From Takakia lepidozioides (lineage: Eukaryota; Plantae; Bryophyta): a stretch of DNA of 64,000 nt. The notes under the pieces were generated by a model that was not told where the DNA came from, made no database searches, and saw only the letters and a program-made list of their open reading frames with translations. Positions 1 to 64,000 of this stretch are shown here, one piece after another (within the stretch, counting starts at the first letter, position 1; every line of letters begins with the position of its first letter). Where the stretch lies: contig CM060734.1 of NCBI GenBank assembly GCA_030704615.1, positions 3,782,001-3,846,000 of the forward strand, given 5' to 3'. Made by a program: the position numbers and the translations under genes.

Positions 1-720
1 CTGCCAAAGGCGAACGGTCATCGTGTCTCACACGTTGAGACTGTCTCCCTGTGTCCAAAATGCTAACCACTGTGAGGTGTGCTGGCAGCTGCACCCCATC
101 AAATGCACGCTTGAGCAGTGCGGGTGGCATCAAGTTAGTCCTACCATAGCCGTGGACGATGAGCCCGTGACCCCACTACAGCTGCATCCAACAACACTGA
201 TGACCCAAGCCACGATCAGACTTGATACACACTGGCCATCACCCTGGCCCGAGAATCACCTATCGGTGGCACATTCTCCAAGATGTATGCTGGAGATACA
301 GCTTGATGAAGTTGCAAGTGGCGCAAAACCCGCACCATCTCCCAAAACAGACCCGTCCTTGAGTCTCGCAATCCATTGCCATGCCCGGCTGATGAATGCC
401 CTTGGCAGGGGCAACCTGCCACTACCAAATCAATGGAGCCAACCTGCTCCAAATCCTGTGCCCCCAACAACGAAATGTCTGCTGGCAAGGCTTGTTGGTA
501 TCCATGAACTGCAGACACTGACAACAAATCAGGGTACTGCTGTACCAACTAAGCAACATGGCGTAGTGAGATGCGTCGTGCAGTCTCATCCCTCTCCACA
601 TACAGGTAACGTCGAATTTGTACACCTGCCTGCAACACTACAGCCAATCCAGTGCTGATCCCGCCAAACAAGTCCAGAAGGTATATGCCTTCATCCGGGC
701 ACTGCCACACAAGAGGTGTG
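1..720 (-). pseudogene. C5 cytosine methyltransferase domain of gypsy copy 1 (disrupted)
   Basis: Motifs LLDLFGGISTG (I), YVERD (II), DLVVAGCPCQGHS (IV) and YILENV (VI). In-frame stops at 549 and 216 and a 1-nt insertion near 133. Confidence 0.9.
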
Positions 721-2256
721 GTATCCAATGGCGACAACTGAGGTGGTCCTGGTGCAATCACCGCACTCTCTTCTTCTTCTGACGGTATGAAGGCCTCTAT
801 CCAGGCTTGTTGCACCTGTCCATCAACAGCCTGCTGCAAATCCTTGCTCGTACCCCACAATGGAGTGTGAGCAACCATGGCAAGCAACTGCGCCGTACCA
901 TGCATGTCATCCTGCTCTGCTGAAGATGGCACATCCTCTGCATGGGCATTGCCTTCCAGCAACTCTCCAGGCCAACTAACCGCAGCTGTAAAGACGGCTA
1001 GTGTTGGCATCTTGCCCCGCTGGGCAGCCGCAGTACCCCCAATGAATGTCACAGGGAGCTGTGTATGACGACCATCCCTTGACTGTCATCCAGGCCTGTA
1101 GGATGCTGACTCCTCCCAAAAGTCCAGGGTGAAGCCCATGGGATATAATACTGCCCCACCAACGAGGACATCGTAAGAGACCGCGTCTGTCACAATGGCC
1201 TTGGCTCGCATCACTTAGCCATCTATAGGATAATCCAGCTGCAGTCTAATGGCCAACTCACGCCGTGTCATGCCCCGAGCCTGCTCTGATCCTCCCAGAG
1301 ATGTCTGTATCTGGAAAGGACAAGGCTCCATATCCGCCTCCATGAGGCCCAAACCTGCAATAGCAGCTCTGCCCAACATCAGTGGCTAAGCTCCCGAGTC
1401 CAACAAGACCCGCAGTGGCCGGTACTTCTTGCCTGCCGGTCCACTCAAAGAGAAAATGCCATCCTGGTTGTCTAACAAGACAACTCCAAGTGTCATCATG
1501 GCGCGCTCAAAGGCTGGCCTAGCTGATAGCTCCGTCAACCTGGTAGCTGCAGCTTGCCATGGCGCAGCCGTGGCAGTCTTGACCCTCAAATCCGAGGATC
1601 CCTCTGCCACTACACCTTCCAGTAACTCCGCAGAAGATGAAGTGACCTCCCTACTCTCACAGAGTGTTGCTGCTAGTCTGAACACTACAGCTGGTCTTAC
1701 CCCCGGCGTCGCAATCATGGTTGCCGAGAACAATGGGGCTTGACACACAGAGGTGGCTACCCCCAATAACACACCGGCTGCACTAGCCTTGGTAGCAGGT
1801 GTCAGTGATGCACGTGTAGCTCTCCCCAATGGCATAGTAACCTCCGCCTCGGTAACAGTCGGGCGATAACTAGGTGCCATGGATGGCGTCAACACTGTCT
1901 CCGCCAATGTGAATGACTGAGGAAGCCTCGCCTGACGGCTTGCCTCCCCACGTTGTGGATCCAATTCCACCTCTGCACCTCGTGACTCAGGAACTCGTGC
2001 TGCTCCTCGAGTCACGTCTGCAGCAGACTCCACCTGCTCTAGTGGTAGTGATGCTCCGTACATGAATCCCATGCCTCCCATATCTCCTCCCTCAGGAGCA
2101 GGAGGTGGACCATCCCGCCTGGGAGCCGGTACCACCTGAGCTGTAGCCATGGCAGCGAGCCTCTGCTCTAGCTGCTGAAGCCGGTTGGCCATGCCTTGGT
2201 CAACACCCTGACCTCCGCGTCCTTGGCCATGTTGAGGTTTGCCCTTGGGCTGCACC

Positions 2257-3626
2257 TCATGCCCGGCCACCTCGTCCTCTCTGGGCTGGTCCACCTTGCC
2301 CCCGGCCACCATTGTTCCCTTGGAATTGGCCTAGGCGCAACTCAGGATGCAAGTCATAACACTGGGCATCTCCATGCCCATACTTGCCACAATGCCCACA
2401 CTGCAACTGTGCAGGCTGTACTTGTGCCGGCCTTTTGCCACTCTCTGGGCAATCTTTCTTGACATGGGGTCCTCTACATGTCCAACATATCACCCCCGGT
2501 TGCTGTTGGCTTGCAAAAGATGCTACTGGCCTCTGCACCTAAGGTCCCCTATAAGCTCCATGAATTTGGGTTGGGAAACCTTGCTCCCCTGACCACGCTG
2601 TTGGGCAGTCCCTTGTGCCTGTGGGCTGGCAGCTGCGCCTCGTGTAGGCATGTCTTTGCCAAATCCAATGGTAACAACTCGCTCCTCCACCATGTTGAGC
2701 TCAATCCGCTCAGCCAGCAGAAACACATCTTCTAATGTGGGTTGGGCTGCTTGTAACAGGGTTGCATCCCGCACCCTTCTCCTGAGCTCCTTGTCCAAAA
2801 TTCCATACCAGAACTGGATTGCCTGAGCTTCAGTAACCCCTTGGGTCACACTTATTAAGCGCCTCATACGAGTGTACGCCTCTCGCAGGCTCTCACTGGG
2901 TTTGCGCTGGAAGTCTTGCAAACTTTGCAGCTTCTCTGTCCGTACACCTTGGTAGTTCCTCCGCAACTCCCGGAAGAACTCCACCACCGGGCTGAATCTA
3001 GGCACATGTGTTGTAGTCGTGGGATGATGAGTAGTAGGACCTTCTGCAGAAGTATCGGCACTACTTGTTCCACTACTAGTGCTAGCCGTGGGAGGTATTG
3101 GTGTTGATGCCGCTACTGGTCGCGTTGTTCCTCGAGTAATGGAGACGTAGTCAGGTGACCAATACATCCTCCACTCTTCAATTTCTGCTTCATGTCCTCG
3201 CCTGAACTCGTGGTAATCGTCCATAGGCGGGCCTTCCAAATGCCGGAACAATCCCTTCCACGCCATGAATGGGGTGAACAGCTGTGGATTGCACATCTGC
3301 TGCAAATCACACCAGCTGTCGAACTCCTGGATAAAGTCATCCAGCTCGATTGTGCCCACAGCTCCAGAGTACCTACGAGGCCCCTTGGTAGCTCCATACA
3401 TCTCCTCCATGTCATCCCACAACAATGGCAAAGAAAACTGCACGCTTGTTGATGAAGCCTCCGGGTCTGTGTCAGACTCTACAGTTGTTGAGGGTGGAGG
3501 TGAAGGTGGTCTGAACCGAATACTTCGTCTTGTGAACCCACTCTCACTGTTACTGTCTGTAGCCGTACTCTCCTCAAAACCCTTGGGTAACTCCGTGATG
3601 ACACTCACAATGTGCACCTCCCCCAC
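2257..3626 (-). pseudogene. Gag (capsid plus two CCHC zinc knuckles) of gypsy copy 1
   Basis: Retrotransposon Gag-like segment QRKPSESLREAYTRMRRL; knuckles CWTCRGPHVKKDC and CGHCGKYGHGDAQC; homologous to 62079-63991. Confidence 0.85.
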
Positions 3627-7797: not shown

Positions 7798-8149
7798 GGT
7801 GTCCGGTCACAGGTAGTCTTGCCTGTTGACTTGGCTATCCCGCTCGTGGGTTTTTTTTTTCTTCCTCCGACCCCCAGACGACGACCCCGCCCCAGAACTT
7901 GAGTTCACAACCCCCGACATTGTATAAACCGCTACCCACTACAGGGGACAGAACCTAAAAAACGGTAATGGACGCATGTGGATGATATCTTCGTAGTTTA
8001 TGCAAAAACAGATCACAGGAGATCCGAAAACGGCAAAATGGTGTTAAGATGATGAAACATGTAACAAGGGTGTGGGACCGACCAATAAAAAACGGACGTA
8101 ATATTCTTAATATAAAAAAAATGTCGCTTCATTTAAAAAAAAACCCAAA

Positions 8150-8667
8150 AAAAAACGACGCGACTGCCGCATGGCGGTCCTTATATTTAAAAAAAAACCA
8201 AAAAAGGCGACCGCCTCTTGGCGGTCGCTGCATTTTTTAAAAAAATATTAAAGAAGCAACCGCCACATGGTGGTCGCTTTATTTATGAAGAAAAAGAAGC
8301 GACCGCCACTTGGCAGTCGCGTAATATTTTTTAATATACAAAAAAGAGTGATCGCTCTTGTGGCGGTCTCTTTATTTAAAAAAAAAATCCAAATTAGGGA
8401 ATATATTTTCTAAATAACAAACGCTTCATTTTAAAGAAAACAATTAGAAGCGACCGTCAATATGGGCGGTCACATGTTTTTTAAGGAATTATTAAATATT
8501 AATAATTTGCCACGTGTGTTTTACACCGTAGTTGTCATGTGATTAGAAAAGGTAGCAGTAAATCGTAAAAGTGAAATATAAAAAAATTACATGGATAAAT
8601 GTCTGGTTTCACGTCCGTCGTGACGTCTGATGTGTGAGCGCCACGTCACGTCAGGAATGATAACTAG
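8150..8667. repeat. Subterminal palindromic repeat array and end of a DNA-transposon-like element
   Basis: Repeated GCGACCGCC-N4-6-GGCGGTCGC hairpins in AT-rich spacers, as at 55380-55724. ACGTCACGTCA motifs and CTAG at 8664-8667 abut GEX2-like coding sequence. Confidence 0.7.
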
Positions 8668-24995: not shown

Positions 24996-26929
24996 GAGTA
25001 CAATATTATGGAACATATATTCCTTGACAGACCTTTTATATGTCATTGTTGGTTGAAGGTGAGGGGGCTCATCATGTTACAAGCAATGTCATCCTTGATG
25101 CTACTGCGCAGGAGGAATCTCTTCACAAGAAGCACCTTTTGGAATGCTGTAGGATCAGCTTGCTATGGATAAACATACTGCAGTGGTCGGCACAGTTTTT
25201 GGTGAAATTTTTCTTGCAGACTATCTGCTGATTAATTTTGCTAGAGTTAAACATTTCCTCTCTGGCCCTGCCTATTAAATGTGCAATATTGGTACATTTT
25301 TCTTACATTAGCTGTAATCAGGTGAATGACCATGTACTTTGGAATGGCAGTGTCTCTTGAAGTTATGCTGAAAACAGTGGGGCCAGCAGGCCAGGGGGAT
25401 ATGGGTGAAACCAGAAATTTAGCAGCCACGTCACTTGCACTTAATGGCTTCAACGTAAAACTGAAGGCACCGTTCACAATAAGTAGGCCATTGAGTGACA
25501 CTGTTCCTGTATATGTATGTGCATGGATGTTAACAGGGCCATGAGTGACATGGGACTGACAAGAGTATGGTCAGAGTGAATAGCCAAACATCCACTGCTA
25601 CATTCAGCATGGAGGCTTCAAAGAATTCTACCAGTGCTACAATCCCATGCTACAGAAGAGGGGGTATCGTGGCTCTCAGGTACTTCTCATTTTTCCAACC
25701 CTTGCATCCCTTGACCCTCCATTGACCCTGTTACCCATAGGGCATAGACACTGTTCGTTTCATTTTATTCAAGCAGGGCACTTTTAACATGTACAAATGA
25801 TCACTAGCATAGTCATGATTCTGGGTCTCCAGGTCCTCCGGTTGGTCTTGTGCATTAACAATCTGCGTACGCAGGTGGTGGATGATCCACAATAACCCAT
25901 TTACAGATGAGTCTACTGCACCATAGGCGAACTTCCAATCATAGACTCATGCAGATTTGACCCCAGGGCACACCTACTGTGTGGCCCCAGGTGGCATTTC
26001 CCTCGCCATTAACATCCTGTTGGAAACCACAGTACAACATAGCTAACATAATTTGGAAGAGTTGCAATGGTATCGTCACTTTGAAAGTGGAAGCATTCAC
26101 CTCGTGAGTCATTTGAACATTCCTGGATTTTGTGGAAGGAAGTAGTGTGGTTGTTCTACATTTTCCAACAGGCCCTCAGATAAGACAATTTTTTTCTTAG
26201 GCAGCGGGTTTCAGCTTTGAGCACCCAAAGTGCCTGGCAGTCTGCCTGCATGAGGCACTTCATCTTCCGAATTTATTTGATGTTTTCTGTACTGGTTCTC
26301 TTGTTGTCCTACTTTGGCCCATGGGTCCTCAGGCCCCATGTGGACGTTGTAAGGTTCTTTCTTTCTCTTATGGACCTTCTCACAGAATAATCTCTCTTAA
26401 GTGGGTAAACGTGAATGATGTTTTGAAGGTCATCTGTCGGTGGCAAAAACCAGGTTGGTGTACAGGTGACATTCCAAATGCCATTTAGTTGTGAGACAAC
26501 AGTAAAGGGGACGGAGAAAGTAACATTTTCCCCACTTGCAGTAGTTGACTGTACGAGGGTCACCTGGTAAGGGATGGATCCACCAAGCTGGGCTGATGGG
26601 ATGATTCCATGGCCATCGGCAGAGGTGATGATGAACCACACAGAAGATCCTGGTGCATACCCTCCTGGGTTGAAATTTGAGCTGGTGTAACTGTATTGAG
26701 GTGAAGGAGGCCCAGAGACATTGAAAGTTGCCGGTGGACTAACACCTGTACACATTAAAATCCAAGCTGTGAAGATATTCATGTGTAATGTCTAGTTGGA
26801 AAAGAGTGCATGAATCTCAAACAAGAGTAATGGTTTTGTAGTTTTTTTACATGTTGCAACTATGATGGGGTGGCAGTTTCGATGTTGCAGAAGGTGTCCT
26901 ACCTCTAGTCCTTACCTAACTTCTACGTT

Positions 26930-40319: not shown

Positions 40320-43030
40320 TGTGGAACCCCCGCGGACACTTACAAAAGTATATATAAGGAGTAGTAACCCCGAGAACGGTGCAAGCCCGTTGGTGACCAA
40401 AAACTAGTGAGTAAGCGTGCGAGCTGGAAAGCGACCAAGGTGTGGGGAGTTGTTCCGAATTGCCATCTATCAAAGGGAATTTCCACTGAGCCCCATAAGT
40501 AGAGGGTCGAGTGGGAGTGTGAGGGGGACCGTTATGCCCCGGTGAGGAGCCGAAGCTCCAAGTTGGCCCGACGGCCAGTTTGGGAGTTAGGCGCGCGCAT
40601 CAAAGCAAGTAACTATGACTTGACGGGGAGCTTACCGAAGTGAGATGCGCGAAACTTGGTATCAGAGCTTAGAGTTCAGTACGTGATCGTCCTTGAGATC
40701 GGCCTCACCATAGGGTCGGGCAAGACAAAGCGAAAGTGGAACGGCCCGAAAAATGATGATCCTGGTGAGCCCGGTAGGGGTGACGTGTCCCCGAAGCAGC
40801 AAATGGAAGAGGCGATTTATGCTTCTGAAAACGAGGCCGCTCAAGAACGGGAGGAATTTGGGGAGTCGGAGCCCGAGGACTTCCCAGAGGCTCCGCCAGA
40901 CCAACAGATGTCTCCCGTGCCAGCAGCCTTTTGGGAAGGGTTGTTGGCGCAGTTTGGCGGGACATTGAAAGACGTGATGAGGGCGGCTGATGCCACTTCC
41001 ACTAAGGCGAAGTTTAAGGTGAAGCCTAAGGAACCCGACACCCTCGAGGGTGTCCGAAATCGGAAGGCACTCAACACCTGGCTCTTGGAGCTGGAGCAGT
41101 ACTTCCGGGCGGCCAAGTTGAGTGACGAAGATCGGGTGGAAGTGGCTCCCACTATTTGAGGGGCTATGCTCAACAATGGTGGCAGAAGCGCCTTCATGAC
41201 CAAAAGCCAAACCTAGAAACCTTGAGCTGGAGTGGGTTCAAGGAACTTATGAAAAGACAGTTTGTGCCTCTCAACACGTCCTGGGCTCGCCCGGGACAAG
41301 ATGAGGAACTTGAAGCAAACGGATGACATTCAGGGATATATTCAGGCTTTCAATGTGTTGTTGCTCGAAGTCGCGGATATGGCGGAACCAGAAATGGTCT
41401 TCAACTTTGTGGCGGGACTGGCCCCATGGGCCATGCGGAAGTTGGAGGAGAGGCCACCAAAGACTTTGAACGAGGCAATTGAAAGGGCTGAATGTTTCTC
41501 GGATGTCCCTAGGGGCGAAAGACAGGGCCGTACGGAGCTGAACCATAAAAAGGTCCGGCGAGAGGGTGACTCCTTCCGACCGGAAAAGAAGTGGGATAGG
41601 CCACGCGGCGACAATAGCACATGGAAATCGAAGGGAAGGTCTTCACACGTCAAGGCGACGCCCGGTGCTCTGAAAGGCAAATCAGGTGCAGCGGCTTATG
41701 GCGGATAGATGGCGACCTTTGATAAGGTGTGCTTTAATTGCGGGGAGCCCGGGCACATTGCTAAGAAGTGCGCCAAACCCGACAATTGAACATGACTCGA
41801 GCGACAACGGAGTTGTCCGAATACTCCGTCAGCCGCTTGGTGGAGGCGGTGGTCGCCAAGACTGACAAGGTAGGCAACTACTCTTGTGAGTTGTATCAAG
41901 AGACGGGAGCCTTGTGTAAAGGGAGTCAGTTAATGTTCGTGAGCGGGATAATTTCCGGAACTAACGTGTCGTTGTTGGTAGACATAGGAGCGTCGCACTC
42001 CTTCATGACACCGGCAAAGGCAGGGAAGCTGGGACTCCCGACAAATGAAGTGGGGGGGGGGCTCCGTAAGGTGACTTACTTGGCCGGATGTACCCCTTTG
42101 CCATTAGATCCTTGAGCTGGGCCTTACTATTCGCAGATAAGAAGGATGGACGCTGCGGATGTGTGTCGATTACATGGCTCTGAATAATATGACTATAAAA
42201 AACCGGTACCTTTTGCCAAGGATCGACGACCTTTTCGATCGGTTGGCAGGAGCAAAGTATTTCAGCCGGATCGATTTACGCTCGGGTTACCACCAGATCC
42301 GGATAGCAGAAGGAGATTCGGGATCACAAAAGTGGAGTTCCTAGGGCATGTGATTACACAGGATGGAATCAAAATGGATGGCAGAAAGGTGAAGGCAATC
42401 TTGGACTGGGAATCTCCGACTTCGGTCCCGGGAGTGCGATCCTTTCTAGGACTCGCCTCCTACTACCAAAAGTATGTGAGAAATTTCGCCAAGATCGCGG
42501 GGCCGCTGTCAGACCTTCTGTGTAAGTCCAAGGTATAATAGGGTCCACCCCCGGAAGGGGGCAGTAGCCGAAAGGTGAAGTGACTCTTAGTTACGCCGGC
42601 TTCGACCGGAGTCTTCTCTCTCTCTCTCTCTCAGTCCAAGGTATGGGTATGGAACATTTTTTGTGGCCAAGCTTTTGCCGAGTTGAAGCAGCAGATGGCG
42701 GAAGCTCCGGTCTTGAAAATCACGGAGTTCGATCGTCCATTTGATATTCATACAGATGCATCGGACTTCGCAATCGGGGGTGTGCTCATGCAAGATGGAC
42801 GTCCAGTGGCTTACGAAAATAAGAAACTGAATGAAGTGGAGCGACGGAGGCCTACGCATGAGAAAGAAATTAAGACGGTGGTGCATTGCCTTGAGCTTTG
42901 GCGCCACTATGTTGGTTCCAACCTGGTGATGGTGTTCACAGACAATGTCGCAGTGAAGTACTTACCACACAGCCTAAGTTGTCCCACAAAACAACTTAGG
43001 TGGCAAGATACTTTGACCGTGTTCGACCGC
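40320..43030 (+). mobile_element. Degenerate Ty3/gypsy (chromovirus-type) retrotransposon: LTR, PBS, gag, PR, partial RT, RNase H
   Basis: PBS TGGTATCAGAGC at 40657; knuckle CFNCGEPGHIAKKC; protease LVDIGASHSF; [36 protein letters not shown]; RNase H TDASDFAIGGVL. Internal deletions, no integrase or 3' LTR; LTR start approximate. Confidence 0.88.
42537..42632 (+). mobile_element. 96-bp retroposed 3' tail of the RLE LINE family with a (TC)n tail
   Basis: Flanked by a 12-bp TSD AGTCCAAGGTAT (42525-42536 and 42633-42644); matches the reverse complement of 38926-38988. Confidence 0.88.
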
Positions 43031-43346
43031 TAGCCTTAGGTACATCCCCTAACCATGACTAATTTTTAGGGTTCTGCCAACTTTATGATACTCTCTTATT
43101 TCCCTCGTTCTTTAGTGAAGCCGCTAGTTTACCCCCCTCCTCCAGTTCTCGCTAGGCCTTCATCGCCGCCATGGCCATGGCTCCTGCTTACAACGCTGCT
43201 GTGCAGCGGCCCTGTCTCGTTGCTCATAGACACTTCTACCCCCTTTACCGCCTCTCTCTAGCGCTTCTTCTCAGCTTTATTTTGATTGATTCAACAAAGT
43301 TTTGTACTTTTAAGATCAAAAGTAGCGCTCTAGTTCTACACACTGT

Positions 43347-45026
43347 TTGCTGCCTATCGGGATCTCCATCCGCTCAAATGGTCGAACCAGCAGCTCGATA
43401 CCATGGTTGTCCATCAGCGCGCGCCCCAAGCATTCCTGCGCCTGCACAGGGCTACTCTCCTCATTGGCCCCGAAGGCTCTGCTTGATCTCCACCACCGAA
43501 GCGACCTCTCTAAGAAGCATGTTACTAAGCTCGACAAGCTGCTGCCTAACCACTATGCGAAGGCTTCTACCCGGCTGGCTTCGCCCTGGCATCCCACTGT
43601 TACACACTCAAGCGACAGTTCACCCCGTATCTTCTGTTGTTTCCCTCCCCGGAATGTCTACGAGACCGAATACCCCCAGTTTCGTCGACCACATTGGGCC
43701 CAGGAGACCATGCTTGAGCTTCTACATGGACATACCATTTTTGTTATGGCGGACACTGTTGTCGTTCAGCTTATGCGCTACTGCCACACCGAGTCGTCCA
43801 GAGACGGTCTGTATGATACTGGAGCTCTTCTTAAAGGTTGGAAAGTGCTACCGCTGCTGCGGGTTTGTTACCGTGCTGGGAGGGATATGTCCCAACGTTT
43901 GTACCTCAAGCCGATTCCCCGGCTATCCTCAGATTTGTACCTCTCATACTCTCAAGCTAGGCGTCCGAGCAATACTGCTGCGGCCTGCCGACCGCACCCA
44001 CCAGCACTTCGGCAGCCAGTCGGCCCTCTAAGAGACAGGGGGTTCCGGAACTACGGAGGGTTGCGGCTAGCTGCTAAGTACTGCCATCACTGGGGCCCCA
44101 AAACTGCTCTGCTACAGTGCACCGTCTCTCCCACAGCAACCATCCACTGGTGCAGTCACCCCCCTCACCTCTGCATCGTGCTCTCGTACCATCGTGATAC
44201 TCTTGGTAAGCCCCCTCTTACCCCAAGCCTGTGGAATTACACACATGCTCTACTTGTTCAAGTTTCCAGGGCCCGAGGAGGCTCGCAGGACAATTTTAAT
44301 GCCCCAGATGTACTTCCGCTGGCTCTCACACCACAGAGAAACTTCTTCTATGGAGGGAGCATTCACCACCGCGCTGCGATGATCCAGGGTCTCTCACGAA
44401 TGTGCTTTGAACTAAAGGGCGTCATTACTGGAACTGTGAAGGACCTCACATTCGGTGTGCCTGGCTGGACCCTGTTAGTAACCCCAAAAACATACATCAG
44501 GGAAGCAGGTGTAGTGATGGGAAAGTATGTAGCTAACCTGGCTGATCGACTGAGTCTCTGCTACTGCGATCTAAAAGGCAACCACACTGCAAACCCTAGT
44601 TCTACTACTAAGATGTCCAAGCAAGCATTTGGTTATAGCTTGGAAGACCAGGCACCACCTGCAAGCCCCGCATCAGGCAATGGAGTAGTCGCATCTCTGC
44701 TCGTGGACCCTGAAGCATCCGTGGATACTGAACCAGATGGGCCAAAATGCGAGACTCAACAGTTAATCTACCTCTCAGGTTATCACATCTACTTGACTGG
44801 CTTTGAGGCTGCTGTAAAGAGGAACCCTGTAAATACCGTCCGAGATGGAGGAAGAACACGACACATGGAGTTGAATGCAATAGTCACCCATGTCATTCTT
44901 GGACAGGCCCTGATTCACATGACTTCAGACGACTGGTGGAAGGCAGGGCCCCTCGCCATGGGCCAGGTTAATTGTCTACTGCAGCCTCTCTCTAAATCAG
45001 GTGCCCCTCCCACTTACGTGCTATAG
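43347..45026 (+). CDS. Uncharacterised 559-aa ORF (true start possibly ATG 43171 via a frameshift)
   Basis: Long open frame with no recognisable domain; continues after stops into repeated peptide modules at 45090-45550. Confidence 0.4.
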   Translation: MLPIGISIRSNGRTSSSIPWLSISARPKHSCACTGLLSSLAPKALLDLHHRSDLSKKHVTKLDKLLPNHYAKASTRLASPWHPTVTHSSDSSPRIFCCFPPRNVYETEYPQFRRPHWAQETMLELLHGHTIFVMADTVVVQLMRYCHTESSRDGLYDTGALLKGWKVLPLLRVCYRAGRDMSQRLYLKPIPRLSSDLYLSYSQARRPSNTAAACRPHPPALRQPVGPLRDRGFRNYGGLRLAAKYCHHWGPKTALLQCTVSPTATIHWCSHPPHLCIVLSYHRDTLGKPPLTPSLWNYTHALLVQVSRARGGSQDNFNAPDVLPLALTPQRNFFYGGSIHHRAAMIQGLSRMCFELKGVITGTVKDLTFGVPGWTLLVTPKTYIREAGVVMGKYVANLADRLSLCYCDLKGNHTANPSSTTKMSKQAFGYSLEDQAPPASPASGNGVVASLLVDPEASVDTEPDGPKCETQQLIYLSGYHIYLTGFEAAVKRNPVNTVRDGGRTRHMELNAIVTHVILGQALIHMTSDDWWKAGPLAMGQVNCLLQPLSKSGAPPTYVL

Positions 45027-52657: not shown

Positions 52658-53319
52658 TCAGGGTTGCACACGCCAATGACGTCACGTCACGTCAGACCTG
52701 ACGCTAACGCGACCAACGTCACGTCAGTTTTGCCGAAAAATCGGTAAAACATGAGTTACGTGAAAAATATGTCACGTAGGTGGATACGTTGTATTCCAAG
52801 CGACACCTTGGCAAGTGAATGAATTGTTTTATAAATTACTCCATCCGCCAATAGTTGAGGTCATTTTTAAATCATTATTGTTAAATTGGTGCGACCTCCA
52901 AATGGTGGTGGTCGCAGAATTTATCTTATTTTTTAATAGTTGCGACCACCAGCAGAGGGGTTGTCGCAGCATTTTTTGTTTTTTAAAAATAGATGCGACC
53001 ACCAGCAGGGGTGGTCGCATTTTTTTCTTTTTTTAAACAGTTGCGACCACCGCTACTGGTGGTCGCACAATTTTTATTTTATTTGTAATAGGTACGACCA
53101 CCATCAGGGGGGTGGTCGCAACATTTTTCTATTTTTTAATATCTGCGACCATCAGCATGGGGGTGGTCGCAGCATTTTTCTGTTTCTTTAATAGGTGCGA
53201 CCACCGGCAGGGGGGTGGTCGCAGAATTTTTATTTATTGTTTTTAAAATATATATATTCTCTGTGACCACGAGCATGGGGGTGGTCGCAACATTTTTCTT
53301 TTTTTTAATAGGGATTGTT

Positions 53320-54170
53320 GGCGATTCTAGAATACCGGAGCGTTGGGAGCTAGCGGGAAAAAAACCCAAGTCCAAAAATCCAGAAAAGGCGTTGAGACAA
53401 CATAACGACGAGTGTTCGGTAGTGAAGTTCCAGCATCCGGGTGTTATTTCGTATTTTGCTATGAATGCACGTGAGGTAGAGGGTTACACTCGCTGGTGGA
53501 ATGGGGGGACAATACGCGACATGATGAACCTTGATAGAAAATGGGGCAACGATTTGGACAACAGGGTGATTTTGGAACAAAGGGGAACGGAAGCAGAGTT
53601 CCAAGAATACGATCGCTTGCTTCGTTTCCGAAAAGTGCGTAGTAAACTTGCATGGGCACTGGTGTGCATCATGGATATTGTCCACAAAAACGGTGTCATG
53701 CACAACGACTTGTCCCCCGATAACATCTTGTTGCATTTTCCAGATGGCACCGAGAAGATCAAAATTGGGGTGTGTGATTGGGGCTTAGCCACCCCATTGG
53801 GCATACGCAAAGCCTCGCCGTACCAGTTTGAAAACCAAGACAAGCTGGACCGGGAACTCGCGAAAAGATGGTGGGTGGAAAAAGATATTGCATCGGTTTT
53901 CAATGTGAATGTCACGCCCCCCCCCCCCCCCAGGACATGACGTCGAAGGCCTTTGCCGTTGGGAAGATAGCGGTACAAATAAATGACGGCGTTCATTATG
54001 ATCAAAGTATGTTCCAGGACCAATTTACGGGAGGTTATCGGCATTCAATGCTACAAAGGTTGTACGACAACAATAAGAATGAGAGAGTCACATTAGCCCA
54101 TGTAGTACTTCGGTTCATGGGCAAGCCATTCAATTGGCCTGAGCCGAAAGATGTATATAGGACGGAGTAG
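53320..54170 (+). CDS. Protein kinase-like domain (N-terminally truncated; frameshift in poly-C at 53917-53931)
   Basis: LAGKK (beta3 Lys), HPGVI, VHKNGVMHNDLSPDNILL (catalytic loop, ~53701) and VCDWGLA (DFG-like); the C-lobe continues in ORF 53868-54170. Confidence 0.75.
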
Positions 54171-54253: not shown

Positions 54254-54782
54254 TAAATAAAGTCCCATTGTAAATACTACATTGCATATGCTCGACCCTG
54301 GCTGTCATCGCAATATAAATGGTTTGTGTACTGGCTCACTGTTTATATTTGTAATGTTCCAAGGTTTCGGATAGGGTTATGAGAAAACGATGTATTAGTT
54401 CTGTAGGAGTTAGACAACAAACGTCTCCTCTCATTTAACTGTGCGACGCTACCATGAGAGGCATGGATCGGAAAGTAATAGGTACACATGTGACCTCCGA
54501 ACGTTTGATACTAGGTCTTTATTTAAACGTGCGGAGGTCGCATGTACACCTATTACTTTTTTATCCATGCCACTCATGGTAGTAGCGCACAGTTGAATGA
54601 GATATGGAACGTTTGTTGTCCAACTCCTATGAATCCAATATATCATTTTCTCAGTACCCTGTCAGAAACATTGAAACATTCGCAGTTACAAACAGTGCCA
54701 CAATACACGGCCGATTTTGTTGAAATGACATTTGTGAGGTTCGAGCGTATGCAATTTATTATTTACAACGGAATTTTATTTA
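54254..54782. repeat. Long imperfect inverted repeat (~260-bp arms, short loop near 54515)
   Basis: Paired blocks include CATGTGACCTCCGAACGTTT/AAACGTGCGGAGGTCGCATG, TCTCATTTAACTGTGCG/CGCACAGTTGAATGAGA and AGGAGTTAGACAACAAACGT/ACGTTTGTTGTCCAACTCCT. Confidence 0.85.
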
Positions 54783-54850
54783 CTCGGGGGGACCGGTACT
54801 GCTGTTGGAGCGCAACTGATGGTGCGAGTGGAGCTGTCATAACCAATGTC

Positions 54851-55207
54851 AACAATCATATTTACAGTAAGGTGTTTCATGCTATTGTTGTTCCTCTAGC
54901 TGAATTCTGTAGTACTCTTTTTGCTATTCTCATGTCAACGTCATCTGAGACTGTCATGTTCAAACGGATGTATCAGCCACCCCGGCCAACTTGCAGACTG
55001 CAGCCATGGCCCACCATAAATTGAATGAATTGGAGATTTTGTGCGAAGTTCCTGGTTTCATGTCCTTGGTGGCTGATACGGAATTCGGAATATGACAGTC
55101 GCAATGGACCTGATGTTGTTGGCATGGGAGTAGCAAAACGATTCCTAAATAATTCTGCTACATGAACATCGGCAGTATGAAACACCTTGCAGTACATATG
55201 ATTCTTC
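54851..55207. repeat. Second long imperfect inverted repeat (~135-bp arms)
   Basis: AAGGTGTTTCATGCT/AGTATGAAACACCTT, TTTGCTATTCTCATGTCAAC/GTTGGCATGGGAGTAGCAAA, GACTGTCATGTTC/GAATATGACAGTC and GTATCAGCCACC/GGTGGCTGATAC. Confidence 0.85.
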
Positions 55208-55724
55208 ATATTGTTTGCACGGATTATTTGTGTTTGTGCCTTCAAGTGGCGAACATTTCCGCCATGGTGCGGAAGACGTGCATTGGCCACATTAAACGGT
55301 TGATGTGATATCATTTCACAAATGTATCACATCGCATTTGTGAAAATGTTGCTTCATTTTAAAAAAATCAAAAAAAATAAGCGACCGCCAGCATTGGCGG
55401 TCGCTTCATTTTCAAAACATTTAGAATAAATAAGCGACCGCAACCATAGGCGGTCGCTTCACTTTCAAAAACTTTAAAAAAAATAAGCGACCGCCAACAT
55501 AGGCGGTCCCTTCATTTTTTAAAAATTAAAAAAAAATAAGTGACCGCCAACATAGGCGGTCGCTTCATTTTTAAAAAATTAAAAAAAAATAAGCGACTGC
55601 CAACATAGGCAGTCGCTTCATTTTCAAAATATTTAAAATATATAAGCGACCACCAACATAGGCGGTTGCTTCATTTAAGAAAAAAAAATAAAAAAAAAAT
55701 AAGCGACCGCCAACATAGGCGGTC

Positions 55725-56427
55725 TGTCGTGCGCATACATATCGCTACACAACTACATCGCTGTCCAAAACCACACAACACATGTGCACACCACACACTA
55801 GTATACCACTAGTCTACCACTAGTCCAACCACTAGTCCAACCACTAGGCTACAACTAGTCAGTCACTAGGCTGCCACTACGCTGCCCACTATGGCAGTCA
55901 CTAGTCCACACAATAAAGAGGAAGAATACAAGCACAAGCTCATGCGAGCTCACAAAGCTGAAGCATAAACTCAGGCATATATAACCTCATCACTCAAATA
56001 CAAGTCAAGCCAAGTGCACCCCACGCCATGGGGAATCCACACTACGGCGCCATAGCTAGGCGCGGTGAGGCTCAACTCGAGAAAGATGAGCCTCCCGCGC
56101 TTGCCGTGAAGATAACCACTCCAGGGCCTAAATCTGCCTTGACCCCTGGATTGACACTTGGGCCAATCCCAAATGTCAATATGTAAAAGCTAGCTATTTC
56201 CTAGCTAGTTTCACACTAGTGGTAAAATAACTTGACAGCTGTCGTGCGCATACATATCGCTACACAACTACATCGCTGTCCAAAACCACACAACACATGT
56301 GCACACCACACACTAGTATACCACTAGTCTACCACTAGTCCAACCACTAGTCCAACCACTAGGCTACAACTAGTCAGTCACTAGGCTGCCACTACGCTGC
56401 CCACTATGGCAGTCACTAGTCCACACA
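55725..56427 (-). repeat. 3' LTR with A-B-A structure (188-bp unit A at both ends)
   Basis: 55725-55912 appears identical to 56240-56427. On the minus strand the PPT-like AGGGGGGCGAT (56428-56438) precedes TGTGTGG and the LTR ends ...GCACGACA. A TATA-like TTATATATG lies in B (~55976-55984). Confidence 0.85.
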
Positions 56428-56687
56428 ATCGCCCCCCTAGCTGGTGCTTAGGTCCCTCTAAGTCCAGGTAGCCACAAGATGTGATAGTGACCATAGCCTC
56501 ACTAAGTCCTCCACCACTATCCCTACTACACTCAAACTCGATAGATCAAGAGGCCGGGTGCAAGAGTTGCCCCATCGTTAGTCGCCGTCTTGCAACCTGT
56601 GAACTTGAGCTTGGGATCTCATGTATTGACTCCTATGAGCTTGGCCTCCCATGTCTTGTTAGCTGCCTCCAGTCATGTCCACTACCA

Positions 56688-57950
56688 CTATCCCAAGCAG
56701 TGTGGACACAACCAATCTCCGTCAGGAACCTTCTCAAGGGGTGGTGTCAAGCATCCCATATGCCAACCCCTTGAGCACCGATCACACACCAGCATGGTGG
56801 CTGCCCCTTTGGCAGACCCACAGAGCATGCACCTCAAACCTGCAGGTACCACTGCCAAGTTTGGGTCAACTCTGCCATCGACATTGGGAAGGTGACATGG
56901 CGCACAATTACGCACATGGTCTTTCCAAGTCATGCCATCCCGACCCTCTAAGATCAGGACCCCTGAGGGCAACACCTCTCGAACCCTCAGAATAACACGC
57001 CCTGCAGTAACATCCAGAGTCGTAGGAGCAGTCTGCTGCAAATAAACATAGTCACCAGGGCTAAACCTCCGAACCCCAGGACGATATCCTCCACCACGTA
57101 TAGTGGCATACCTCAACGTATCACGGTGTTGTGCAATGGCAAGGTTCTCAAAAGCCATGGGCATGACTTTCTTGAACAACTCTGCACGCTGATCACATGC
57201 ACGTACCCACATGTCCGGATCGTCAAGGTTAAGGACTTGAGCAGTGTCCCTACGAATGGCTGCAGGCAAATCCGGCTCTCGGCCAAAGAGAAGGAAATAT
57301 GGTGAGAAGGAGGCAAGTGATGCTTGTTTGCTGAACCTGTAGCCCATGGCTAACCAAGGAACCTGAAGATCCCAATCTCCTAGGTGTCCCTTCTGCAAGC
57401 CATACTTGCGCAAACCCCTCTTCACCGTCTGAACAACTCTCTCTGCTAAGCCATCGGCCTCAGGATGATCCCGAGAAGTGGTGCGGTGGTCTATCAAGGC
57501 TTTATCACACAAAGCCTGAAACTCCCCCAAGAACTCTCTCCCTTGGTCCGTGAGTACCTCAGCTGGAGCACCAAATCGGCTAAGCACACGATCCAAGAAT
57601 GCATACGCAGCCCCCTCACTAGCCTTGTCAGGCAATGGAACCAACTCAATCCACTTGGAGAAGTGCTCCACCATCACCAACACATATCTGTGGTGGCGCA
57701 TAGTCAGTGGCAACGGTCCTGCGAAGTCAAGACTCCACCTGTAGCCCAATCCCATGATTGGTAAAGGATGCAACTGTGGTGTAGGGGCGTTGAATGAAGC
57801 ACGCACCCTGTCACACACCATGCACCTAGCCACAAATGTTGCACCTCTGTATGCATACCACGCCACCAATACTGCCCTTGCAGTAAACTGTGAGTGCGTC
57901 GCACTCCAAAATGCCCCAACTCCTCATGGGCATGCCGCACTAACCGTGCA
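56688..57950 (-). CDS. Integrase with a C-terminal PHD finger
   Basis: HEELGH...CMVC, WSLDFAGP, LTDQGREF, LAERVVQT and FSPYFLLFG. C4HC3 finger CMLC-X11-CDRC-X4-HMGC-X14-CPHC with PDGDW at 56697-56831. One frameshift near 57835. Confidence 0.92.
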
Positions 57951-58339
57951 CGCTGTGTGGGGTGAGGCACAATCCTCACCCGACCATCCTCCCACACTCG
58001 AAGTAGGTGTATCCCCTCCCACTTGAACCTCTTGGCTCGTTGCAGGATCCGATCCCTCTCCCTGGCAGTCACAATGGCTGCCGTGTCTCCCGTGCGGAGG
58101 TAGTCCAACACAGCCGAATCCTCATGTATATCTCTGGCACCACCTAGCTCATCACTAGCCTCAGGGTCCTCAGACACTCCGTCTACAGTCATCCCTGTTG
58201 TAGGTCCAATCTGACCTCCCGATGCCAAGATACACAAAAATGCAGATGCGTGCCATCCCGGCACCATCTCCTCGTCCGTCTCACCATGCCACCGAGCTCC
58301 AGTGTCATCCTGCTGGCTCATGCATGGATTGCGACTCAA

Positions 58340-59662
58340 TCCATCCGCATCCCGATTGACCAAACCCGGTCGATGCACAACCTGAAAGTCATACTCCTGG
58401 AGTATAAGTGCCCACCGTGCAAGCTTCCCCGTAAGCTTGTCTGACTCCATCAACCACTTGAGTGGCTGGTGATCCGTGACAAGGGTGAAAAGATTGCCGT
58501 ATAGATAGCACCTGAAGTGTGCCACGGCCCACACTGCAGCTAAGCACTCTCCCTCATATGAGCTGTACTTAGCCTCTGCAGCGTTGTTCGAGCGGCTAGC
58601 GTAAGCCACTACGAACTCTCTTCCCTCATCATCCACCTGTGTGAGCACCGCTCCAAGCCCCAGCATGCTCCAATCCGTATGCAGCTGAAAGGGACGCCCC
58701 CTGATAGGTCGTCTCAAGATAGGCGCCGAGGTCAACCTCACCTTGAGCTCTTGAAAAGCTCGTTCCTGCTCATCTTCCCACTGCCACTCCTGGTCCACCT
58801 TGGTCAGCTTGGTTAGAGCCTTTGCAATGGTACTAAATCCCTTGACAAACCGTCTATAATAGTTTGCCAACCCCATGAAAGCTCGAACTCGGCTCACATC
58901 CGTGGGGCGTGGAATTTGTGCAATGGCCTCTACCTTAGTCTGCTGTACCCCCAATCCTCCAGGATATATCATGTGACCCAGATACTCAATCTGGTTGTGG
59001 AAAAACTTGCACTTCCCCGGATGCAACTTCAATCCGTGCGCTCTCAAGCGCTCCAATACCACCTGAAGGTGTCTCTCATGCTCCTCCATCGTAACACTAA
59101 AGATGATGATGTCATCTATGTAGCACCGAGCAAAGTCCACCCCTGCTAGAATCCTATCCATGACTCTCTGAAACTCTGCAGGAGCATTCTTAAGCCCAAA
59201 TGGTAAGAACCGCCACTGATATAGGCAATCCTTGCCGTGCTCATTGATCCCCCAGAATGTCGTCTTCTGCTTGTCCGCCTCCTTGATTGGCAACTGGTGA
59301 TATCCGGATCGTAAATCCAAAGTGCTAAAGGCCTTAGCATGCCCGATGGCATCAAAGATCTCCTCTGGTGTTGGCATGGCATACTTATCGGACTTGGTCT
59401 GACGATTTACAGGCCGGTAATCACCGCACATACGTCTCTCCGTCCAATTGCCATAGACATCCTTCTTGGCTGGCATCACTGTGGCTGAAGCATACTCTCC
59501 ACCAGAGAGCTCCACCAAACCTGCCTCCCAGAGATCTTGAGTCCTCATCTGAATCAAAGACCTCTCCATGTCACTGTATCTATAGGGTCTCCGAAAGATT
59601 GGCGTGTCAGTGGCCAACTCAATACGGATCTCTTGACCCTTCAGTGCTCCCAAGTCCTTCAA
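58340..59662 (-). CDS. Reverse transcriptase and RNase H of gypsy copy 2
   Basis: [67 protein letters not shown] and TDHQPL. Confidence 0.95.
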
Positions 59663-60109
59663 ACTGAAGGCAAAGCAATTCCTGTAAGCCCTCAGGAACC
59701 GCCGTATACGTCGTCTCTCTCCTCCGGTGACAATGGGTCCAATGTCAGGCTCCCAATTGTCCTCCGTAACTACAACCTTAAGTCCAGTGGGCTTAGAGGT
59801 AGAGGACGCGTCCCGTGGTTGCTATGCTGCAACCTCTTGAGCAGTACTCCCTACCTGCTCAGTCAATGACAAGGTATCATCCTGCCCCATCATCTCATCC
59901 TTGAGGACCTCCTCAACTCGAGAAGAATCCCCAACCTCATCCATCACAGCCGCCTTGGCTGCCAACTCCCTCTGAACCTCGAGCACCTCCCACGTGTGCC
60001 ATGGATGCATGCACCCCGTGGTCCTCATATGCTCGCCCCCACTCACTGCCTGTACCGTCTCGGTAGGCAGAGAGACCATTGAGGGAAGTGTATTCCGCAC
60101 TCTGCGTTG

Positions 60110-61080
60110 CTCAGCTAGAGCCAAGCTGATAATCCAGGTCAAGCAATTGAGATCCATTGCTTGCCCCAACACTTGACGACGTGATGCCTCAGAAAGAGAC
60201 GACACCGCCGTGGTACCAGTGGTAAAACCCATTGCCCGCTCACGCTCGTCAGCATTAGGCTCCACTAACTGCTGCAACTGAGCATCCCACAGGAGGCCAG
60301 GTCCACTATCCCGGAAAGCATGCGATCCTGGGAAGCTGAGCAGTGTAGGTAATGCTGCTCGTGGTTGACCCACCTTGTTGACCACTGCCAAAGGCGAACG
60401 GTCATCGTGTCTCACACGTTGAGACTGCCTCCCTGTGTCCAGAATGTTATCCACTGTGAGATGTGCTGGCCGCTGCACCCCATCAAATGCACGCTTGAGC
60501 AGTGCGGGTGGCATCATGTTAGTCCACCATAGCCGTGGACGATGAGCCCGTGACCCCACTGTAGCTGCATCTAGCAACACTGCTGACCCAAGCCACGACC
60601 GGACTTGATGCACACTGGCCATCACCCTGGCCCGAGAATCGCCCATCAGTGGCACATTCTCCAAGATGTATGCTGGAGATACAGCTTGATGAAGCTGCAA
60701 GTGGCGCAAAACCCGCACCATCTCCCAAAACAGACCCGACCTCGAGTCTCGCAATCCATTGCCATGCCCGGCTGATGAATGCCCTTGGCAGGGCCAACCT
60801 GCCACTACCAGATCAATGGAGCCAACCCGCTCCAAATCCTGCGCCCCCAGCAACGAAATGTCTGCTGGCAAGGCCTGCTGATATCCACGAATTGCAGACA
60901 CCGACAACAACTCAGGGTACCGCTGCACCAACTGAGCAACATGGCGAAGTGAAACGCGTCGTGCAGTCTCATCCCTCTCCACATACAGGTAACGCCGAAC
61001 TCGTACACCTGCCTGTAACACAGCAGCCAATCCGGTGCTGATCCCGCCAAACAAGTCCAGAAGACAAATGCCTTCATCCG
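60110..61080 (-). CDS. C5 cytosine DNA methyltransferase domain (DNMT3-like, non-permuted) within the polyprotein
   Basis: Uninterrupted frame with motifs I LLDLFGGISTG, II YVERD, III ADI, IV DLVVAGWPCQGHS, VI YILENV, VIII AHRPRLWWTN, IX ERERAMGF and X RRQVLGQAM. Confidence 0.93.
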
Positions 61081-61149
61081 GAGACTGCCACACAATAGGT
61101 GTGGTGTCCAATGGAGACAATTGAGGTGGTCCTGGTGCAATCCCCACAC

Positions 61150-63991
61150 TCTCCTCCTCTCTGACGGTACAAAAGCCTCCACCCAGGCTTGTTGCACCCG
61201 TCGATCAGCATCCCGCTGCAAATCCTTGCTCGTGCCCCACAATGGAGTCTGAGCAACCATGGTAGGCAACTCCGCCATACCATACATGTCATCCTGCTCT
61301 CCCGGAGGTGGTACATCCTCTGAATGAGCATTGCCCTCAAGCAACTCTCTAGGCCAACTCACTGCCGCTGTGAATGCTGCTAGTGTCGGCATCTTGCCTC
61401 GCTGGGCAACCGCAACTCCTCCTATGAACGTCACAGGGAGCTGCACACGCCGGCCCTCCCCTGACTGCCATGCAGGCCTATAGGAAGCTGACTCCTCCCA
61501 AAAATCCAGGGTGAAGCCCATGGGGTACAACACTGCCCCACCAACCAGGACATCGTATGAGACTGCGTCTGTCACAATGGCCTTGGCTCGCATCACTGAG
61601 CCATCTGTAGGGTGATCCGGCCGTAGTCTGATAGCCAACTCATGCCGTGTCATGCCCCGAGCCTGCTCCGATCCTCCCAGAGACGTCTGTATCTGGAAAG
61701 GACAAGGCTCCATATCCGCCTCCGTGAGGCCCAAGCCTGCAATAGCAGCTCTGCCCAGCATCAGTGGCTGAGCTCCCGAGTCCAACAAGACTCGCAGTGG
61801 CCGGTACCTCTTGCCTGCCGGTCCACTCAAACAGAAAATGCCATCCTGGTTGTCTAACATGACAACTCCAGGTGTCACCATGGCGCGCTCAATGGCTGGC
61901 CTAGCTGGCAGCTCCATCAACCTGGCAGCTGCAGCTTGCCATGGCGCCGCCGTGGCAGTCTTGACCCTCAAATCCGAGGATCCCTCCGGCACTACACCTC
62001 CCACTATCTCCGCAGAAGATGAAGTAACCTCCCCACTCTCACAGAGTGTAGCTGCCAGCCTGAACACCTCAGCTGGTCTTACCCCGGCGTCGCAATCATG
62101 GTAGCCGAGAACAATGGAGCCTGGCACACAGATGTGGCCGCTCCTAGCAGCACACTAGCTGCCGTAGCCTTGGCAACACTAGGTAGTGGTGCTACCCGTG
62201 TAGCTCTCCCCAATGGCATAGTAACCTCCGCCTCGGTAATAGTCGGGCGAGAACTAGGTGCCATGGATGGCGTCGACACTGTCTCCGCCAATGTGAATGA
62301 CTGAGGAAGCCTAGCCTGACGGCTTGCCTCCCCACGCTGTGGATCCAACTCCACCTCTGCACCTCGTGGCTCAGGAACTCGTGCTGCTCCTCGAGTCACG
62401 GCTGCAGCAGACTCCACCTGCACTAGTGGTAGTGCTGCTCCACACATGAATCCCATGCCTCCCATATCTCCTCCCTCAGGAGCAGGAGGTGGACCATCCG
62501 GCCTTAGAGCCGGTACCACCTGAGCTGTAGCCATGGCAGCGAGCCTCTGCTCTAGCTGCTGAAGCCGGTTGGCCATGCCTTGGTCAACACCCTGACCTCC
62601 GCGTCCTTGGCCACGTTGAGCTTGCCCTTGGCCTGCACCTCGTGGCTGGCCACCTCGTCCTCTCTGGGCTGCTCCACCTCGCCCCCGGCCACCATTGTTC
62701 CCTTGGAACTGGCCTGGGCGCAACTCAGGATGCAAACCATAACACTGGGCCTCTCCATGCCCGTGCTTGCCACAATGCCCACACTGCAACTGTGCAGGCT
62801 GTGCATGTGCCGACCCTTTGCCTCCCTCTGGGCAATCCTTCTTGACATGGGGTCCTCCACATGTCCAGCACACCACATCCGCCCGTTGTTGGCCAGCAAA
62901 TGAAGGGAGAGACCCCTGCATTGAGGTCCTCTCTGCCCTTCCCTGAGCTTCACCTGAGCCCCCTTGTTGCCTTGAGCACGTTGAGGTAGTGGTTGGCTAG
63001 GAGCACCACTACCCCGTGGTGTCTCCTTAGCAAATCCCACCATGACCACTCGTTCCTCCACCATGTTGAGCTCTATCCGCTCTGCCAGCAAAAACACATT
63101 TGCTAAGGTGGGTTGGGCCGCTTGTAGGAGAGTTGCATCCCGCACCCTTCTCCTCAGCTCCTTGTCCAATATCCCATACCAGAATTGGACTGCCTGAGCT
63201 TCCGTAACCCCTTGGGTTACATTTATCAAGCGCCTCATGCGAGTGAAAGCCTCCCTCAAGCTCTCGGTCGGCTTCCGTTGGAACTCTTGCAAGCTCCGCA
63301 ACTTCTCTGTCCTCACCCCTTGGTAGTTCCCTCTCAACTCTTCGAAGAACTCCACAACAGGGTTGAAGGCAGGCACGGGTGCTAGTGCTGGTGCGGTAGT
63401 GGCTTGGGTGGACGTCGTAGCTACTGTACCACCAGTCCCACTGCTGCTTGCTGAAGCTGCCGGTGCAGCGGCAGGTGTAGCCACTGCCCTCGTGGCTCTA
63501 GTGCCCCTAGTGATGGAGACATAGTCGGGTGACCAGTACATCCTCCACTCCTCGATCTCAACCTCATGCCCCCGCCTGAACTCATGGTAATCATCCATAG
63601 GCGGCCCCTCAAGGTGCTGAAACAGCCCTTTCCATGCCATGAACGGCGTAAATAGTTGTGGATTGCGCATTTGCTGCAAATCACACCAACTATCAAACTC
63701 TTGGATAAAATCATCCAACTCAATGGTGCCCACCGCCCCAGAGTACCTTCGTGGCCCCTTGGTAGCTCCATACATCTCCTCCATTGTGTCCCACAACAAT
63801 GGCAAAGAAACAACTTGCACCGCCGGTATGAGCCCTCCTGATTCACAATCCGAATCAGAACCTTCCGTGGAAGACACAGGAGGTGAAGGTGGCCTAAACC
63901 GCACACCTCGTCTCGTGTACCCACTAGTATCGCTAGTGCTCGAACCGGCACTGTCCCCAGCAACTAGTGGCACCTCCGTGTTGACACTCAA
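61150..63991 (-). CDS. Gag, zinc knuckles and aspartic protease of gypsy copy 2 (frameshifted)
   Basis: ORFs 62552-63991, 62079-62921 and 60805-62127 join into one protein through 1-nt shifts; CWTCGGPHVKKDC, CGHCGKHGHGEAQC, LLDSGAQ and DVLVG. Confidence 0.88.
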
Positions 63992-64000
63992 CCGGTCATG

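Follow-up and report, generated by a model that had tools for sequence, protein, structure and literature searches.

The analyzed stretch comprises 64,000 nucleotides of the bryophyte Takakia lepidozioides (assembly GCA_030704615.1, contig CM060734.1, positions 3,782,001 to 3,846,000 of the forward strand) and is here referred to as the window. Its right end is occupied by a Ty3/gypsy retrotransposon on the minus strand (the main element), which carries a DNMT3-like C5 cytosine methyltransferase (DNMT) and whose gag is cut by the right window edge. The domain order was gag, two zinc knuckles, protease with a DSG motif, DNMT, reverse transcriptase (RT), RNase H, integrase and a PHD finger. The succession gag-protease-RT-RNase H-integrase and the Ty3-like RT, which had Ty3 RT as best PDB match (8.5e-74), are those of Ty3/gypsy elements. 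The gag part was ~60% identical to the N-terminus of Marchantia open reading frame 1 (ORF1) proteins. Pfam gave no match for the protease region of the window copy; its LLDSG motif has the D codon at 61780-61782, and PF13650 is present in the relatives P0019, P0030, P0033 and P0065. The features of both copies of the element in the window are listed in Table 1.

Table 1. Features of the main element and of a second copy in the window (PPT, polypurine tract)
Feature	Position	Strand	Basis
Gag capsid region, cut by window end	62960..64000	-	Pfam Retrotrans_gag E 0.0022, below cut-off
Two zinc-knuckle motifs (CCHC type) of Gag	62741..62870	-	Read from translation; relatives named CCHC-type domain proteins
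Aspartic protease region; DSG motif 61774-61782	61180..62076	-	Sequence
DNMT3-like C5 cytosine methyltransferase domain; catalytic Cys codon 60788-60790	60086..61120	-	Pfam, PDB sequence matches, AlphaFold/Foldseek
In-frame TAG then CAA CCA; end of ORF1, likely readthrough signal	59816..59824	-	Stop context in relatives
RT and RNase H	58391..59750	-	Pfam RVT_1 6e-33, RT_RNaseH 6e-36
DDE integrase (H2C2 zinc finger and core), frame break near 57833	56874..57961	-	Pfam Integrase_H2C2, rve
PHD finger, C-terminus of integrase	56697..56831	-	Pfam PHD 1.4e-10
PPT (G run) adjoining repeat B1	56432..56440	-	Equal position in relatives
Repeat B1, CA at end	56240..56429	-	100% identical to B2 over 191 nt
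Internal palindromic junction CA-GC-TG joining the two element ends	56236..56241	-	CA-NN-T(G/A)TCA in relatives
Repeat A2, 323 nt, TG start; 5' twin A1 outside window	55915..56237	-	A1/A2 pairs in relatives
Repeat B2, 3' end of element, CA at 55726-55725	55725..55914	-	Repeat comparison; contig ends of public runs
Second, dead copy: gag, zinc knuckles, protease, part of DNMT	1..3567	-	Alignment, Pfam, stops and frame breaks

The first-pass annotation, made from the sequence letters, had described a complete C5 methyltransferase domain that resembles DNMT3, and both descriptions held. The Pfam DNA_methylase hidden Markov model matched ORF 59825-61204 (minus strand) with an E-value of 5.7e-13, a match that exceeds the curated cut-off. 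The motifs LFGGI, PCQ, ENV, HRPR, ERAMGF and GQAMDLN follow each other in unpermuted order (I-X), including the PC, ENV and RxR signatures of the DNMT3 family. The best PDB sequence matches were DNMT3A (E 1.6e-11) and next DNMT3B, followed by the weaker DRM2 (5e-6 to 9e-5). DNMT3 was nearest by fold as well, since the AlphaFold model of the domain (pLDDT 89.8) had DNMT3A as top Foldseek match (E 7.6e-20, TM 0.65/0.81). Among 91 near-full-length relatives the catalytic C was conserved in 86 and the ENV glutamate in 90; taken together, the C, E and R residues were kept in 86-90. Variants of other motif positions were seen as well. The sister family (L027, L030-L080) and the Closterium and Chromochloris relatives have GWECQ instead of GWPCQ in motif IV, and in some proteins of another family (10/91) the F of motif I is replaced by C.

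Relatives of the element were found across liverworts, peat mosses and algae. When longer proteins were searched for, 80 matches were obtained, and those with names came from Marchantia polymorpha, Calypogeia fissa, Sphagnum fallax and Closterium. A search with a profile yielded 292 matches, the best 120 of which add M. paleacea, Riccia, two more Sphagnum species and the chlorophyte Chromochloris. Among the matches listed (the 80 longer proteins and the best 120 of 292) no fern, lycophyte, seed-plant or Klebsormidium names occurred. From a metagenome scan the best 80 of at least 261 loci were used. The 17 loci of IMG/VR matched weakly and only in part (none better than E 2e-15), and GTDB contributed one locus, a complete element inside a cyanobacterial metagenome-assembled genome (MAG; L098:1-9285). 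This element and the proteins P0070 and P0201, which are labelled as bacterial MAG, are likely binned eukaryotic DNA and could be misread as bacterial methylases.

Three DNMT positions were observed across the relatives: together with Gag ahead of a stop, within Pol, and between RNase H and integrase. The last is found in algal-type relatives, which have the order RT-RNase H-DNMT-integrase-PHD. The DNMT and RT trees gave the same family groupings and placed the window element as sister to a clade of Marchantia and Sphagnum-like elements; the DNMT tree had one reference only, an insect DNMT3B on a long branch.

The second copy was 85.4% identical to positions 60385-63925 over 3567 bp. Its DNMT part is N-terminal (Pfam 1.5e-13), and its RT would fall outside the window. 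Together with the relatives named from Marchantia, Riccia, Calypogeia and Sphagnum, this copy bears out the earlier proposals that the DNMT is a heritable family trait and that such elements extend to land plants. The gag of the two window copies (63100-63800 versus 2750-3450) showed a dS of 1.3 and 72-80% identity, as compared to a dS of 0.15-0.24 and 84-95% downstream, with a step in divergence near 62950. Because gag is far more diverged than the region downstream of this step, one of the two copies is likely a recombinant between subfamilies.

Neutral evolution of the domain, with a dN/dS near 1, had been named in advance as an observation that would speak against a function. The dN/dS between the DNMT segments of the window copies was 0.30 (95% confidence interval 0.17-0.54), well below 1. 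For the stop-free relatives L010 and L012 it was 0.15, and against five Sphagnum-like copies 0.07-0.10 with dS near saturation, as for RT. These ratios indicate that the domain is under purifying selection. A one-off capture or a decaying, functionless passenger would fit the poor condition of most copies, because only 8 of 50 near-full-length DNMT segments fetched were free of stops and the window copy itself has four frame breaks. However, the hundreds of relatives in liverworts, peat mosses and algae, the dN/dS well below 1 and the congruent trees refute this explanation, to which we give practically no credence.

According to the first-pass annotation the DNMT lay in a polyprotein between protease and RT. 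The location was correct, whereas the single polyprotein was not, as a conserved stop splits Gag-protease-DNMT from RT. This TAG (59822-59824) separates two domains that share one frame. In total 61 DNMT-RT junctions were examined. A stop followed by CAR-YY was present in 21/21 junctions of relatives with at least 50% identity, the window included; these represent three lineages and not 21 events. A fourth lineage is L098, in which TAG CAA TCA is the sole stop from gag to PHD. The contexts were TAG CAA CCA in the window, TAG/TAA CAA CCC in the Sphagnum-like family and TAG CAG TTA in L010/L012. The residues flanking the stop differ among the four lineages, and the background frequency of CAR-YY within the element is 0.9% of positions. 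Additionally, five Marchantia proteins of 1278-1281 aa span gag to DNMT and end 95 aa past motif X. Intact Gag-protease-DNMT frames of Marchantia polymorpha are annotated as the genes Mp_4g09160, Mp_5g06330, Mp_5g06860, Mp_Vg00370 and Mp_Vg00540. The recurrence of the same stop and context in three further lineages and the intact Marchantia ORFs ending there argue that ORF1 is Gag-protease-DNMT, with RT-RNase H-integrase-PHD as the likely readthrough product. The DNMT would then be made at the Gag level in the clade of the window element. In the sister family of ~40% identity no shared stop was found from protease to PHD and gag is overlapped in another frame, which indicates that its DNMT is part of Pol.

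CAR-YYA is the readthrough signal of tobacco mosaic virus (TMV), with ~10% readthrough in vivo (PMC2754532, PMC2194720). According to the same sources, SIRE1, Tca2, murine leukaemia virus (MuLV) and TMV likewise have an in-frame stop with CAR-YY, ahead of which an abundant product is encoded and past which a polymerase follows. In SIRE1, Tca2 and MuLV the stop is situated at gag/pol or pol/env, whereas that of the main element follows protease and DNMT. It could also be that the stop simply ends ORF1 and that ORF2 (RT-integrase) is translated from a spliced or internally started RNA. DNMT is joined to RT in some Marchantia gene models (P0006, P0009, P0011, P0015), and a yeast reporter showed no readthrough at the Tca2 gag stop (PMC2194720). 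However, these models are automatic predictions with differing structures, and the frames before and after the stop are in register at 16 intact junctions and in the window. Furthermore, the six bases 3' of the stop are conserved whereas the flanking codons are not. We regard a separately translated ORF2 as quite improbable.

The earlier designation as a long terminal repeat (LTR) retrotransposon holds for the Ty3/gypsy domains and fails for the ends, which are permuted and do not form an ordinary LTR pair. Two direct LTRs with the 3' LTR starting at the PPT were not found in the family. Full-length relatives have the arrangement A1 ... PPT-B1-A2-B2, in which A opens with TG and B closes with CA, and the 3' end in the window agrees with it. 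The formula is TG-A...PPT-B-CA/GC/TG-A-B-CA, with the breaks flanking GC. A1/A2 pairs were present in eight relatives (L005, L019, L029, L031, L033, L039, L042, L060). The junction CA-NN-T(G/A)TCA was seen in 13 of the 29 3' tails examined, the remainder being truncated or mutated, and in L098 too. Contig boundaries in public runs coincide with the corresponding CA and TG, and the flanks there are mixed. The TG...CA ends of relatives are accompanied by target site duplications (TSDs), which in Ty3/gypsy elements measure 4-6 bp; a 4-bp TSD was found in 5 of 6 relatives with both ends, three of them tested with up to three candidate 3' ends. The sequence directly following A1 has a complement of 10-17 nt within A, which exceeds the control maximum at 6 of 8 5' ends. 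Complements of 13 nt in L098 and 16 nt in L010 were found without a control for these two. In the sister family the complement is located ~30 nt 3' of a TATA-like box.

One algal-type family has TG directly after the PPT, in the ordinary position. In this family (L047:1-1648, L049:9030-9909), with the DNMT between RNase H and integrase, an 824-bp repeat was assembled in tandem. A 53-bp repeat array with a short palindrome per unit is present where the main element ends (55304-55724), and a related array at 8123-8385.

Elements of the DIRS order (Ngaro, PAT, TOC1) carry split direct repeats, A ... B-A-B, that copy the junction of the two ends, and encode a tyrosine recombinase. The family described here has instead a DDE integrase, of which rve and H2C2 were both detected, as well as TG/CA ends, a PPT and the 4-bp TSD. 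Tf1/sushi and Tcn1 Ty3/gypsy elements are similar in that the primer site is complementary to their own repeat and not to a tRNA, and such elements have been recorded from mosses and club-mosses (Neumann et al. 2019, PMC6317226). They differ by a normal LTR pair and, mostly, a chromodomain, whereas the main-element family has permuted repeats, PHD finger and DNMT; of the Tf1/sushi-Tcn1 features it shares the self-priming site and lacks the C-terminal chromodomain.

The permuted ends may be explained by the following scheme. The RNA would start inside A, ~30 nt past the TATA-like box, and would prime itself in the manner of Tf1. The RT product would be [B-GC-A]-internal-PPT-[B-GC-A]; its repeat, B-GC-A, would extend from the PPT to the primer site, with the integrase sites in the middle. 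If the two cDNA ends were joined and integrase cut the internal CA/GC/TG site, exactly the genomic form A-internal-B-A-B would result. Extra strand jumps of RT could also produce a linear A...B-A-B cDNA with TG/CA ends and without an integrase-cut circle. The 1-nt microhomology at the A/B joint fits such a template jump, and integrases of LTR elements normally act on linear DNA. On the other hand, the fixed CA-NN-TG palindrome within a repeat started at the PPT requires an internal cut to free TG under either model. We regard strand jumps as a serious alternative of somewhat less than even probability.

At the C-terminus of the integrase a PHD finger is present instead of a chromodomain, which was absent from the Pfam scan of the main element. 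The best PDB matches of the finger were CHD4, PHD1 of KDM5B/5A, PHF12, ATXR5 and PHF21A. We take the fingers of CHD4, KDM5 PHD1 and PHF21A, the closest ones, to be readers of unmethylated H3K4. Reading of H3K4 by the element would echo the ADD domain of animal DNMT3.

Taking these data together, we consider it fairly probable that the main element is a damaged Ty3/gypsy copy whose ORF1, ending at a leaky stop, encodes Gag-protease-DNMT, so that the enzyme is packed at capsid level and methylates new cDNA. Gag-protease-DNMT would build the particle, the DNMT being packed in the amount of the capsid protein and presumably freed by the protease. Rare readthrough of the stop would supply RT, RNase H, integrase and PHD. 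The DNMT could then methylate the new cDNA of the element before insertion, and the PHD finger would likely read unmodified H3 tails for site choice. The methyl marks may let the cDNA or circle resemble host DNA, or may define which chromatin state the inserted copy adopts. That the enzyme is active, that the stop is read through and that a circle is formed we infer from the sequences. A wider version is put forward tentatively and as rather less probable: an old green-lineage Ty3/gypsy clade with intact ORF1 in Marchantia, in which the recoding point moved downstream, a capsid-level DNMT3 methylates its own cDNA and a PHD-guided DDE integrase cuts a joined-end circle at CA/GC/TG, and whose spare DNMT3 could add to bryophyte methylation.

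Several observations weigh against this interpretation. The 5' end, primer site and TSD of the window copy itself fall outside the window. Among the relatives, L031 is without TSD and L039 and L060 are without a priming match. In one family the length of the A/B joint varies by 1-3 nt (4 of 7 copies), whereas in the Sphagnum-like family it is constant (3 of 3 copies), so that a joining of cDNA ends is only suggested. The Sphagnum-like stop context is CAA CCC and not CAR-YYA. At a control site (L001:994) C-to-T decay alone led to a stop in 8 of 12 copies, with CAG/CAA in the other 4. Because decay can yield a shared stop in this way, sharing within one family proves little, and stop-sharing within the Sphagnum-like family was dropped as proof of a programmed stop, the case for which rests on the cross-lineage recurrence and the intact copies. 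The trees were quick searches with SH-aLRT support only and without reference Ty3 lineages. Finally, the Klebsormidium domain gave no methylation in yeast, a test which its authors call inconclusive (PMC5890265).

The yeast result would also fit a DNMT that acts not on new cDNA but on host chromatin or integrated copies, as self-limiting silencing, or that serves as a nucleic-acid-binding scaffold of the particle. Self-limitation was raised by de Mendoza et al. (PMC5890265), and output at the Gag level is beyond the need of one cDNA per particle. The element is CpG-depleted (observed/expected 0.53), though not more than the window (0.50). However, the conservation of the C, E and R residues noted above argues for catalysis, and the domain remains inside replicative ORFs in all three arrangements. 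We hold a host or scaffold role to be unlikely, though clearly less so than a separately translated ORF2.

The first-pass annotation had also likened the element to one of the alga Klebsormidium, which proved apt in kind. De Mendoza et al. (2018) described KnitGypsy-Dnmt3 of Klebsormidium nitens, with the DNMT in Pol, a Ka/Ks <0.2 and DIRS-like repeats (PMC5890265). It has in common with the main-element family the gypsy domains, the unpermuted DNMT3-like domain, purifying selection and the DIRS-like repeats. It differs in that its DNMT is inside the Pol ORF, whereas in the window clade the DNMT ends the Gag ORF; the sister family has the Pol position. The text on KnitGypsy-Dnmt3 is silent on PHD, readthrough, self-priming, TSD and land-plant copies (PMC5890265). 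Later papers cite it as a streptophyte case. The recently described EpiLTRs and DAM-LTRs are likewise LTR elements with a methyltransferase and a chromatin reader; their DNMT is near DNMT4 and accompanied by DAM and a chromodomain (bioRxiv 10.64898/2026.05.21.726589). The same preprint lists 'streptophytes (Gypsy-DNMT3)' separately, as a case described earlier. Beyond the 2018 legend we found no account of land-plant copies, of a stop on the Gag side, of the permuted repeats or of how the ends arise; most subscription journals, Repbase reports and the 2018 and 2026 supplements could list bryophyte members. The kind has been known since 2018, and the main element represents a land-plant clade of it, with the methyltransferase encoded together with Gag ahead of a stop that is likely leaky, a PHD finger and permuted ends.

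Since 2018 it has been asked why a retrotransposon would retain the very class of enzyme by which it is silenced, and the single gypsy example came from an alga for which few tools exist. The intact Gag-protease-DNMT frames in Marchantia polymorpha make activity, readthrough and cDNA methylation testable in a model plant, and the three DNMT positions across the clade form a natural dosage series. The repeat layout predicts integration by a DDE integrase from a circle, a substrate not generally attributed to LTR elements. The clade would go undetected in surveys that require an LTR pair, and DNMT counts of bryophyte genomes can be inflated by its ORFs.

The four frame breaks of the main element are located near 62960, 62083, 61165 and 57833, two of them within short single-base runs. 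These breaks stand against B repeats that are identical over 191 nt; either the insertion is recent and non-autonomous, or the sequence of the element is in part an assembly error. A total of 14,170 variant contigs of the public run X1 map to 1.5 kb of its 3' end, which suggests a family of many copies but gives no copy number. A few contigs of the presumed RNA run X12 were 85-99% alike, which is not evidence on expression.

The genes flanking the main element are an intron-bearing fibrillin gene, a GEX2-like filamin-repeat gene, pentatricopeptide repeat (PPR) genes and L29e. For both exons of the fibrillin gene Calypogeia was the best named match by a small margin (77% versus 69-76%), with lycophyte, fern, moss and angiosperm proteins as runners-up. 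By its flanking genes the host is likely a seed-free land plant, as the first-pass annotation had proposed, though the resolution is weak. The filamin-repeat gene is a long multi-exon gene (9500-30500, minus strand) with filamin and GEX2 Ig-like repeats, and contains on its opposite strand a long interspersed nuclear element (LINE; 20475-24997, plus strand) with endonuclease and RT frames in register and one stop between them (22251-22253). An unrelated broken gypsy element with gag and RT fragments is located at 40644-42620. ORFs without Pfam match were found at 43326-45026 (plus strand, 566 aa), 6835-7806 (minus strand, 323 aa) and 4153-4974 (minus strand, 273 aa). An intronless kinase-like ORF (53140-53940, plus strand; Pfam Pkinase 2.6e-8) is adjoined by long imperfect palindromes (54254-55216) and is perhaps carried by a DNA transposon.

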